IMG/VR virus record: IMGVR_UViG_2541047714_000011
Reading direction: 5' to 3' (one strand)
Length of the DNA: 44,330 bases
DNA from: a virus
Lineage: Duplodnaviria > Heunggongvirae > Uroviricota > Caudoviricetes
Below the pieces are notes generated by a model that was not told the DNA's origin, did not search any database, and saw only the letters and a list, made by a program, of their open reading frames with translations. This document shows, piece by piece, positions 6,404 through 7,835 of this stretch. The translations under genes were made by a program, and so were the position numbers. The stretch's first letter is position 1. Each line of letters opens with the position of its first letter.

Positions 6404-6661
6404 ATGGCTAGAGATGATCCGCACTTTAACTTCCGTATGCCTTTGGAAGTAAGAGAAAAATTGAAATTAAGAGCCGAGGCTAACGGAAGGTCAATGAACT
6501 CTGAGTTATTACAAATCGTTCAGGATGCTCTCTCAAAGCCATCACCGATTGCAGGCTATCGCAACGAAGCTGAACGCTTGGCTGATGAACATTCGGATAT
6601 CGTAAAAAATATGGTATTCGAAACTTTAAAAAAACTTTATGGAAAAGAAAAGAATGAGTAA
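6404..6661 (+). CDS. mnt: Mnt repressor
   Basis: 85 aa MARDDPHFNFRMPLEVREKLKLRAEANGRSMNSELLQIVQDAL..., near-identical to P22 Mnt as recalled; divergent from arc. Confidence 0.9.
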   Translation: MARDDPHFNFRMPLEVREKLKLRAEANGRSMNSELLQIVQDALSKPSPIAGYRNEAERLADEHSDIVKNMVFETLKKLYGKEKNE

Positions 6662-6923
6662 TAAAGAGCTTGTTAAAAAATCAAATAACTGTGTCGATGC
6701 ATATGCTGACTCATTTGGATACTCTTCGTTTGGTGACGGTTCCCAGCGATTAGGTTCAATTTCTTTTTTTCATAATGTAACTGAATGGCCTGTTGATGAA
6801 AGCGGTGATGTTGAAAACATAAAGTACAATATTGCCACCATTAGAATGCCTGAAGAATTGATGCTTAAATTGGCGGACTTCATTCGCGACCAACATTATA
6901 AGGCTAAAACAAACGAGTCGTAA
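6639..6923 (+). CDS. Hypothetical protein (94 aa; alternative ATG at 6654)
   Basis: Track ORF overlapping the mnt 3' end; no TM; not recognised. Confidence 0.45.
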   Translation: MEKKRMSNKELVKKSNNCVDAYADSFGYSSFGDGSQRLGSISFFHNVTEWPVDESGDVENIKYNIATIRMPEELMLKLADFIRDQHYKAKTNES

Positions 6924-6926
6924 TCA

Positions 6927-7376
6927 ATGATGAAACACGATTATTACGAAGCTCCAAATCTAACTGAAAAGCTTGAACAAGCGGAAAAATCATCATCTTT
7001 GTACACAAATCCAATTTCTCAGTCATCAGGAATGTCTGGCATGAATATGGGCATGCTACAATCAAGTGGTGGTGGAGCTGGGAGTAACAACATGCTTGAG
7101 GCTAGGGTTGCACGGTTAGAGGCAGATGTTGAAAACATTAAGACCAATCTATCTGAGGCAAGGTCTGACATCTCTCGTTTGCGTGATATCTCAGCTGATA
7201 CATCCAGAGATGTTGCGGTGGTCCTGCAAAAAATAGTAGATGTAGACGAAAAATTATCAAAAAAACCGAGTAAGAGCGAAGTCCAGACATTGATATCTTC
7301 TGCAGTAAACAAGCAAATACTATGGACCATAGGGACTGGATTTGCTCTTTTAGGGATAGCTAAATATATATTTTAG
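6927..7376 (+). CDS. Hypothetical C-terminally membrane-anchored coiled-coil protein (149 aa)
   Basis: Gly/Met/Ser-rich N-region, predicted coiled coil, single C-terminal TM ILWTIGTGFALLGIAKYIF; 3-nt gap to the upstream ORF. Confidence 0.5.
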   Translation: MMKHDYYEAPNLTEKLEQAEKSSSLYTNPISQSSGMSGMNMGMLQSSGGGAGSNNMLEARVARLEADVENIKTNLSEARSDISRLRDISADTSRDVAVVLQKIVDVDEKLSKKPSKSEVQTLISSAVNKQILWTIGTGFALLGIAKYIF

Positions 7377-7445
7377 CTCACCTCATCAGCTATCTTCTTG
7401 TTCCATTCACTCAGTGCCACTGCAAGGAAAACTAAGGAGGTTAGT

Positions 7446-7835
7446 GTGAAGCGATTTCTTGCTGGTATGTTTTTATTCATATCTTTTGGGGCTACAGCAG
7501 AATGCTGGGTTGTTGGAGATATGCGCGGAATAAGCTATTCAGAACGAAATAATTTCCAACCGGAAGAAGATGGTTTTAGTGGAACATTTATCATTAAGAC
7601 AAGCGGTGAAGATGCCAGCATCACATATTCTGGGACGGATGCTGGCGGCATGGCTTACAAAGCATTGTCTAAAAACTCCATCATAGGAATCGGCGCGAAT
7701 GGCGAAACTCAACGAGTTATCGACTCATGGGTAATACATCCTAATGGAACAGTTTTAATGTCGAAAACCATTTCTGGTTATGGAAACATGGATTCAACCA
7801 AAGCTTTTGTTGGAAAAGTAAAAAGAAAATGTTAA
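7446..7835 (+). CDS. Hypothetical secreted/periplasmic protein (~129 aa)
   Basis: GTG at 7446 preceded by AAGGAGG; N-terminal signal peptide KRFLAGMFLFISFGATA then ECW...; track ORF extends to 7398. Confidence 0.5.
   Translation: MKRFLAGMFLFISFGATAECWVVGDMRGISYSERNNFQPEEDGFSGTFIIKTSGEDASITYSGTDAGGMAYKALSKNSIIGIGANGETQRVIDSWVIHPNGTVLMSKTISGYGNMDSTKAFVGKVKRKC

Follow-up and report, generated by a model that had tools for sequence, protein, structure and literature searches.

Two candidate lysogen-protecting cassettes, one encoding a predicted periplasmic Hex-family protein, occupy the mnt-gene 16 slot of a P22-like prophage without sieA

The window analysed here, a 44,330-nucleotide stretch of viral DNA (Caudoviricetes; IMG/VR virus record IMGVR_UViG_2541047714_000011), holds a P22-like prophage whose immI genes follow the same order as in P22. 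Between mnt and gene 16, where P22 carries orf59a and sieA, three open reading frames (ORFs) lie in the same orientation on the + strand, at 6639-6923 (ORF1), 6927-7376 (ORF2) and 7446-7835 (ORF3). A first-pass annotation of this DNA had described them as one three-gene module in the sieA position, read from Pmnt in the lysogen, with envelope-acting products of the superinfection-exclusion or abortive-infection kind. Position and genes are as described: each ORF belongs to a conserved family (PHROG 4231, 3556 and 2651 respectively, E-values 3e-52 to 8e-61) and homologues of each are found across Enterobacterales. What changes is the grouping, ORF1+ORF2 and ORF3 being two separate cassettes, and the identity of ORF3, a predicted exported relative of the Hex protein of phage 434. 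The features of the locus are these:

6330-6352, + strand: Mnt operator, a base-for-base match to the annotated P22 Omnt.
6348-6376, + strand: Pmnt promoter, a base-for-base match to the annotated P22 Pmnt; TTGAGA-17-TATCAT in a promoter scan.
6404-6661, + strand: mnt, first gene of the operon, encoding an Arc/Mnt-type ribbon-helix-helix repressor (Pfam Arc 1.4e-27, Repressor_Mnt 3e-16).
6654-6923, + strand: ORF1 ("A"), a predicted soluble protein of 89 amino acids (aa); PHROG 4231, E 2.9e-52; alternative upstream ATG at 6639.
6927-7376, + strand: ORF2 ("B-long"), 149 aa; PHROG 3556, E 8.6e-59.
7080-7094, + strand: inside ORF2, a Shine-Dalgarno (SD)-like GGGAG (7080-7084) separated by 7 nt from an in-frame ATG, 7092 (Met56).
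About 7092-7265, + strand: heptad coiled coil of ORF2.
7317-7373, + strand: C-terminal membrane anchor of ORF2 (residues 131-149 hydrophobic by hydropathy).
7377-7427, + strand: junction DNA between the cassettes; no promoter or terminator consensus found.
7428-7835, + strand: ORF3 cassette, Hex family; PHROG 2651, E 7.7e-61.
7434-7440, + strand: SD sequence AAGGAGG of ORF3, ahead of the GTG start at 7446.
7446-7499, + strand: ORF3 signal peptide, predicted to be cleaved between ATA and EC.
7500-7832, + strand: mature ORF3, a beta-barrel of 111 aa, predicted to be periplasmic.
From 7860: gene 16, converging on the three ORFs.

The impression that the three genes are more AT-rich than the flanking structural genes is borne out: their GC content is 39.3%, whereas the window averages 46.5% and genes 16 and 20 have 47-48%, and the stretch falls in the lowest 4% of equal-length sliding windows. 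Such a make-up is typical for acquired cargo. Homology to SieA had been named beforehand as something to check; BLASTP gave only E 0.29 and 1.4, the conserved SieA motif FxRYPxEAxxFNK (PMC10883804) is absent from the window's six reading frames, and SieA homology of the three genes is thereby ruled out.

The arrangement is composite. ORF1+ORF2 have copies of at least 98% identity in phage UPF_BP1 and E. coli strain E4, there not accompanied by ORF3. The phages Emek and ST-35 and E. coli strains such as CREC-591 and O111 05-3004 show the reverse, ORF3 adjoining gene 16 with no ORF1+ORF2 and with an upstream neighbour on the opposite strand. In a set of 5,426 complete E. coli genomes, ORF1+ORF2 are matched in 155 and ORF3 in 150, and the whole arrangement occurs in one, APEC O2-211. 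Loci with ORF3 only become similar to the window at about 7425-7428, 18-21 nt before the GTG and just upstream of the SD sequence, so that ORF3 appears as a promoter-less unit of SD plus ORF. Rather than the single module first proposed, ORF1+ORF2 and ORF3 are independently mobile units of mosaic cargo, found apart far more often than together.

The annotation recognised none of the three products, a statement that fails for ORF3. BLASTP aligns its residues 1-129 with residues 1-132 of 434 Hex (28% identity, E 3e-13), and tblastn finds it, at 100% query coverage and 28% identity, in genes directly following or overlapping cI in 434, lambda imm434, Sf6 (gene 38), HK446 and HK633. PHROG 2651 is matched also by 434 Hex (1.4e-58) and Sf6 gp38 (6.7e-59). 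By sequence, then, ORF3 is a Hex-family protein. Its proposed GTG start behind AAGGAGG is upheld: the GTG at 7446 is supported because the AAGGAGG-N5-GTG arrangement is conserved in three other loci and because the homologues align from residue 1 of the GTG-start form. The Prokaryotic Genome Annotation Pipeline (PGAP) starts ORF3 instead at an internal ATG, 7467. Hydropathy agrees with the proposed signal peptide in placing a signal sequence at the N-terminus. An AlphaFold2 model gives a confident eight-stranded beta-barrel (predicted local distance difference test score, pLDDT, 93.5). The signal peptide, a cysteine pair and this barrel together lead us to predict a periplasmic protein. A structure search of the viral library BFVD returned nothing at E ≤ 1e-3, and proteins of 424-1669 aa matched in the ORF3 search were judged spurious, being beta-propeller or repeat proteins. 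ORF3 has no sequence match, nor a specific structural one, to the MliC/PliC lysozyme inhibitors or to any immunity family, those of the type VI secretion system (T6SS) included.

An exhaustive search for the Hex family yielded 89 cluster representatives, mostly of 120-150 aa, and statistics were taken on 59 aligned members. A signal-like N-terminus is present in 58 of the 59, with Ala or Ser at position -1 in 55; the Cys at mature position 2 is invariant, 58 members have a Cys within their last eight residues, and a lipobox-like site occurs in only four. Published work on the family is that of Shkilnyj, Colon and Koudelka on 434 Hex (PMC3564112), and a search for follow-up literature on Hex found nothing beyond this 2013 paper. 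In it hex is co-transcribed with cI, the PRM transcript running through hex; deletion of hex results in a 30-fold rise in spontaneous induction, in recA+ cells only; in vitro a fragment, sHex, keeps the 434 and P22 repressors from RecA-stimulated cleavage; and overexpressed full-length Hex is toxic. As PMC3564112 relays from Susskind and Botstein 1980, Salmonella lysogens of lambda imm434 exclude P22 and hex-minus lysogens do not. The first residue of sHex is Glu43 of the 158-aa 434 hex ORF (2429-2905 of the 434 locus), which is the first residue after the predicted ANS/EC cleavage; signal peptide, periplasm and membrane are not mentioned in the paper. The predicted export features of the family conflict with a purely cytoplasmic mechanism, without disproving the reported data.

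Distant members of the family occur with no phage repressor nearby, indicating that the gene works on its own. One of 33% identity (P0100) forms part of an integron cassette array in which an attC-like repeat recurs 12 times, another stands beside a resolvase and an integrase, one of 42% identity comes after a gene for a lipoprotein, on an island that holds Ntox50 and MazE/PIN genes too, and one lies between atp and metA. The integron array covers 970-7001 of a metagenomic contig; its attC-like repeats are of about 87 nt and its other cassettes encode HEPN, DUF4272 and DUF1761 proteins. In E. coli CUVM3 a T6SS immunity protein of the Rap1a/Tai type (2856-3191, Pfam E 9.7e-15) directly follows mnt and precedes an ORF3-like gene, so the mnt slot also holds periplasm-protecting cargo that is not anti-phage. 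The stand-alone contexts fit a role at the envelope; they also leave room for a role against threats other than phages.

Of the first cassette, ORF1 had been given as a soluble protein of 94 aa. It has no hydrophobic segment on hydropathy, and that part stands; its length is better put at 89 aa. The ATG at 6654, which overlaps the mnt stop as ATGAGTAA, is preferred over that at 6639 because ORF1 homologues start MSNKEL or MSSKEL, and the PGAP annotation of E. coli strain E4 uses the equivalent start. Between ORF1 and its copy in Shiga-toxin-producing E. coli (STEC) there are 15 synonymous and 4 non-synonymous codon changes: the gene is under strong purifying selection. The AlphaFold2 model (pLDDT 78) has a three-stranded sheet and a long C-terminal helix, with weak resemblance to COMM and PC4 domains.

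The drawing of ORF2 as a coiled coil followed by a single C-terminal transmembrane anchor is supported: hydrophobic residues follow a regular 4-3 heptad spacing over residues 57-88, as read off the sequence, and the predicted anchor occupies residues 131-149. Proteins of the ORF2 type share a layout of variable N-terminal region, Gly-rich linker, heptad coiled coil and single C-terminal hydrophobic helix. In ORF2 itself the N-terminal region holds conserved DYYE.PNL and MLQSS motifs, with the Gly-rich linker after them, and differs from the STEC copy by 6 synonymous and 24 non-synonymous changes; outside the two motif islands it is fast-evolving. A 14-nt exact direct repeat, GATGTTGAAAACAT, lies at 6807-6820 in ORF1 and 7125-7138 in ORF2, reading DVENI in both, and one E. 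coli genome encodes a 134-aa protein (P0012) in which ORF1 and ORF2 are fused in frame across the repeat.

At all ten ORF2-type loci compared, the strongest anti-SD pairing of the gene lies 6-11 nt before the in-frame start codon with which the coiled coil begins, an ATG everywhere but in one locus, which has GTG. The pairing energy ranges from -6.8 to -13.4 kcal/mol, and the annotated start pairs less strongly in every case. The internal SD and start are kept even in coiled-coil/anchor modules with no detectable homology to ORF2, and gene callers often call the resulting short form of 94-99 aa, for example P0011, which has 128 member sequences. This conservation suggests two ORF2 products, a long one coupled to ORF1 translation and a 94-aa "B-short" consisting of coiled coil and anchor. 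Also inside ORF2 is a weak promoter-like site on the minus strand (7260-7233, 9 of 12 matches). It would yield RNA antisense to the region of the internal start, a parallel to the sas RNA that P22 sieB has, though the match could be fortuitous.

The pair has a wide distribution. It stands directly after cI and before PL/N in prophages of STEC (ORF1 95% identical), HK544, VT1-Sakai, Klebsiella pneumoniae, Enterobacter and Brenneria, after mnt in P22-like prophages of E. coli, Klebsiella variicola and Serratia, and also as moron cargo inserted among tail genes. The upstream partner of the membrane protein is of at least four unrelated types: the ORF1 type, that of HK544 gp41, a CxxC...CxxC type and a 140-aa Klebsiella type; ORF1 proved unrelated to the partner proteins of HK544 and phage 29485. 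The type with two CxxC pairs forms a zinc ribbon-like family with members in Salmonella phage 29485 (2553-2927) and an Enterobacter prophage (4673-5011), which share 20% identity (E 2e-8). Where the membrane protein bears the N-terminal YYE motif its partner is of the ORF1 type (4 of 4 loci), and where it has a different N-terminus the partner is of another type (5 of 5 loci). Serratia and Raoultella have an ORF1-type partner before a membrane protein of the same layout without YYE. Taken with the YYE loci, these pairings show ORF1-type partners joined to at least four different coiled-coil/anchor modules.

Apart from PHROGs of unknown function, and some weak matches to PHROGs named "hemolysin" (XhlA-type; E 1e-4 to 2e-3), no family model matched ORF1 or ORF2. 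XhlA itself (Pfam PF10779) is not matched by ORF2, and the two of 25 homologues that touch the model stay below threshold (best E 0.008). Membership of ORF2 in XhlA was rejected, scores falling short of the gathering threshold and hhalign against an XhlA-annotated protein giving a probability of 3.9%. A literature search found no functional study of an ORF1/ORF2-type cassette or its homologues, a comparative-genomics paper that names ECs2991/ECs2992 being left aside. As far as sequence comparison goes, neither a named protein family nor a defence model accounts for the pair.

Expression in the lysogen from Pmnt, as first proposed, divides along the same line. Pmnt and its operators are identical to the experimentally defined ones of P22, ORF1 overlaps the mnt stop (as its counterparts in Klebsiella variicola and Serratia prophages overlap the end of mnt), ORF2 starts 3 nt past the ORF1 stop, and the interval from mnt to gene 16 holds no predicted terminator-like hairpin. 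These grounds lend good support to the prediction that the lysogen expresses ORF1 and ORF2 along with mnt. For ORF3, read-through from Pmnt across the 70-nt gap is plausible; no promoter consensus was found in 7300-7445, and in most genomes the gene upstream of ORF3 is on the opposite strand and so cannot be the source of ORF3 transcription there. The Pmnt transcript could end at 7931-7948, where the + strand has a terminator-like hairpin, some 70-90 nt into gene 16 from the 3' end of that converging gene.

From the sequences we infer an exclusion or abortive-infection role for the three genes, and we give a probability of about 0.5 to the following account: two protective cassettes expressed in the lysogen, the one a Rex-like sensor with a membrane effector, the other a periplasmic exclusion factor of the Hex type, in a prophage that lacks sieA. 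ORF1+ORF2 would be read from Pmnt and translationally coupled to mnt. ORF1 would be cytoplasmic, and ORF2 tail-anchored in the inner membrane, with its N-terminal tether, Gly-rich linker and coiled coil on the cytoplasmic side; ORF1 and the N-terminus of long ORF2 may sense infection or restrain the system, and the coiled-coil/anchor module would then oligomerise in the membrane and stop the infecting phage, a scheme resembling Rex or SieB/Esc in logic, not in sequence. ORF3 would be exported by Sec, cut after ATA, and folded as a soluble eight-stranded periplasmic barrel with a disulfide between its N- and C-terminal cysteines. Most likely it would stop superinfecting phages at the envelope, given that 434 Hex excludes P22, that the ejection-protein genes adjoin and that the prophage has no sieA. 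The predicted anchor of ORF2 and predicted secretion of ORF3 agree with the envelope-acting products first proposed, and the proposal of exclusion-type cargo finds support, for ORF3, in its homology to a genetically defined exclusion gene, 434 hex.

Several observations weigh against this account. None of the three proteins has a PADLOC, Pfam or NCBIfam match above threshold, and profile searches against solved structures gave only noise and coiled-coil matches. Transcription from Pmnt may fail to reach ORF3. The SD-like GGAGG in ORF2 could be a by-product of the Gly codons of the linker; Serratia and STEC versions retain the internal SD without a Gly run. For ORF3, the sole biochemical study of Hex puts its action in the cytoplasm, where it blocks RecA-stimulated cleavage of the 434 and P22 repressors (PMC3564112), and the repressor of the window, 52% identical to 434 cI overall, has a 434-like C-terminal domain, much closer than the rest. 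ORF3 might accordingly shield a repressor of the 434/P22 type from autocleavage and stabilise lysogeny, with no part in exclusion, as the recA-dependent induction of hex deletants and the activity of sHex would have it. We think this quite improbable: signal peptide and cysteine pair are family-wide, sHex starts at the predicted signal-peptidase site and makes up only about half of the barrel, the paper never considers export, and Hex members sit in integron cassettes and chromosomal sites where there is no phage repressor. Those same distant members, in integron and accessory islands outside prophages (the 33% and 42% relatives among them), together with the Rap1a gene between mnt and the ORF3-like gene of CUVM3, could mean that the family protects the periplasm from something other than phages, as T6SS or bacteriocin immunity proteins or lysozyme inhibitors. 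That ORF3 and the Hex family are general protectors or inhibitors of this kind is unlikely in our judgement, since the family's sole genetic phenotype, as far as PMC3564112 relays it, is exclusion of P22; no MliC/PliC or immunity family is matched, and no effector gene adjoins in the prophages.

ORF1+ORF2 could instead serve the prophage itself, as a membrane-tethered control of lysis timing or induction, holin/antiholin-like, or as an addiction module. The long and short forms that an internal start would give bring lambda S107/S105 to mind, the weak "hemolysin" matches point towards XhlA, and the pair is noted always beside the lysogeny repressor; but XhlA membership is unsupported, the pair also travels as a moron in tail-gene clusters, it is predicted to be expressed with the repressor and not with late genes, and it is dispensable, being patchy among otherwise similar prophages. 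We hold this explanation, too, to be improbable. Least credible is that the three genes form one exclusion machine of soluble, membrane and periplasmic parts. Their tight, co-oriented packing invites the idea, and a Serratia P22-like prophage has the same layout (mnt, an ORF1-type gene, a coiled-coil/transmembrane protein, a small signal-peptide protein, gene 16); the third Serratia protein, however, belongs to PHROG 19844 and is unrelated to ORF3, the ORF3 start is preceded, at about 20 nt, by a recombination junction, and the full set is present in one of the 5,426 E. coli genomes when each unit alone is found in some 150. We consider it very unlikely.

Genes that protect the lysogen are classically found in the slots that directly follow a prophage repressor (cI-rexAB, mnt-sieA), and a two-gene cassette, so far uncharacterised, that moves between both slots in at least seven genera is a candidate for a new exclusion or abortive-infection system. 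The link between ORF3 and Hex connects the one family member that has been studied with a gene that about 3% of complete E. coli genomes carry. A family that looks built for export sits ill with the cytoplasmic mechanism published for that member; resolving this would explain the exclusion of P22 by 434 lysogens, a question since 1980. A broader proposal, which we offer tentatively and would back at well under even odds, is that ORF1+ORF2 represent a widespread and unrecognised modular prophage defence (exchangeable sensors, a tail-anchored coiled-coil effector and a long/short switch), and that Hex proteins are periplasmic and stop the delivery of phage DNA. Were Hex indeed periplasmic, the RecA/repressor mechanism published for 434 Hex would need revision.

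On the other side of mnt, the immI region and its surroundings comprise:

2790-4847, - strand: tailspike gene.
4948-5892, - strand: ant.
5889-6158, - strand: an extra small ORF of 89 aa, between arc and ant.
6155-6319, - strand: arc.

The product of the extra small ORF, a member of PHROG 27312 (function unknown), combines a membrane helix at its N-terminus with a coiled coil after it; a small ORF is present at this position also in Emek, CREC-591 and E4, and it does not co-occur with ORF1+ORF2 in UPF_BP1. The window and APEC O2-211 are 99.9% identical over 5847-9521 only; the structural genes are 92-98% identical and much of the early region, including the immunity region, does not align. The limits of this identity indicate that an immI/gene 16 block has been swapped between two different P22-like prophages. 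The window's own repressor, of the S24 type, is encoded at 33526-34242 (+). Its end is overlapped by an ORF at 34239/34260-34628 (+) whose product, 122-129 aa, has several long hydrophobic stretches and looks polytopic; this is likely a second lysogen-expressed membrane cargo gene, in the rex slot.

Among known systems, P22 SieA is the nearest in position. It is an inner-membrane block to DNA injection that acts on gp16/gp20, and sieA is carried by only 22 of 66 P22-like phages (PMC10883804). The genes described here share with it the mnt-gene 16 slot (between genes 16 and 9) and, by prediction, expression from the prophage and action at the envelope. SieA has several transmembrane segments, whereas ORF2 has a single predicted tail anchor and ORF3 is predicted to be secreted. 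The ORF3 relatives, 434 Hex, Sf6 gp38 and the homologues in HK446 and HK633, resemble it in length, signal peptide, the EC[W] start of the mature protein and the C-terminal Cys, and, if read-through from Pmnt reaches ORF3, would resemble it also in belonging to a lysogeny operon headed by a repressor (cI in their case, mnt for ORF3). They differ in placement and in mechanism as published: 434 hex, annotated as encoding a "repressor protection protein", overlaps the end of cI and ORF3 lies in immI after mnt and next to gene 16; the mechanism reported for 434 Hex is cytoplasmic and the family features predict a periplasmic protein; and the identity of ORF3 to 434 Hex is low.

The ORF1+ORF2 cassette invites comparison with lambda RexA/RexB. 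In lambdoid prophages its homologues take exactly the rexAB position, between cI and PL (the repressor and promoters of HK544 are annotated as lambda-like), and both consist of two genes whose products, a soluble protein and a membrane protein, are made, or predicted to be made, in the lysogen. RexA is a protein of about 280 aa and RexB spans the membrane with four helices; ORF1, by contrast, is a predicted soluble protein of 89 aa and ORF2 a tail-anchored coiled coil. No relationship of ORF1/ORF2 to RexA/RexB was found, the sole PADLOC match being a weak one of ORF2 (E 0.042). P22 SieB/Esc and lambda S107/S105 are pairs of in-frame products of one gene; ORF2, which has no sequence similarity to them, is likewise predicted to give a full-length and an N-terminally shortened membrane protein. 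XhlA-type proteins (PF10779) share with ORF2 the succession of a cytoplasmic coiled coil and one C-terminal membrane helix. Seen against these systems, what is new here is the ORF1+ORF2 cassette, which matches no named family, and ORF3 takes its place as a further member of a known, thinly studied one.

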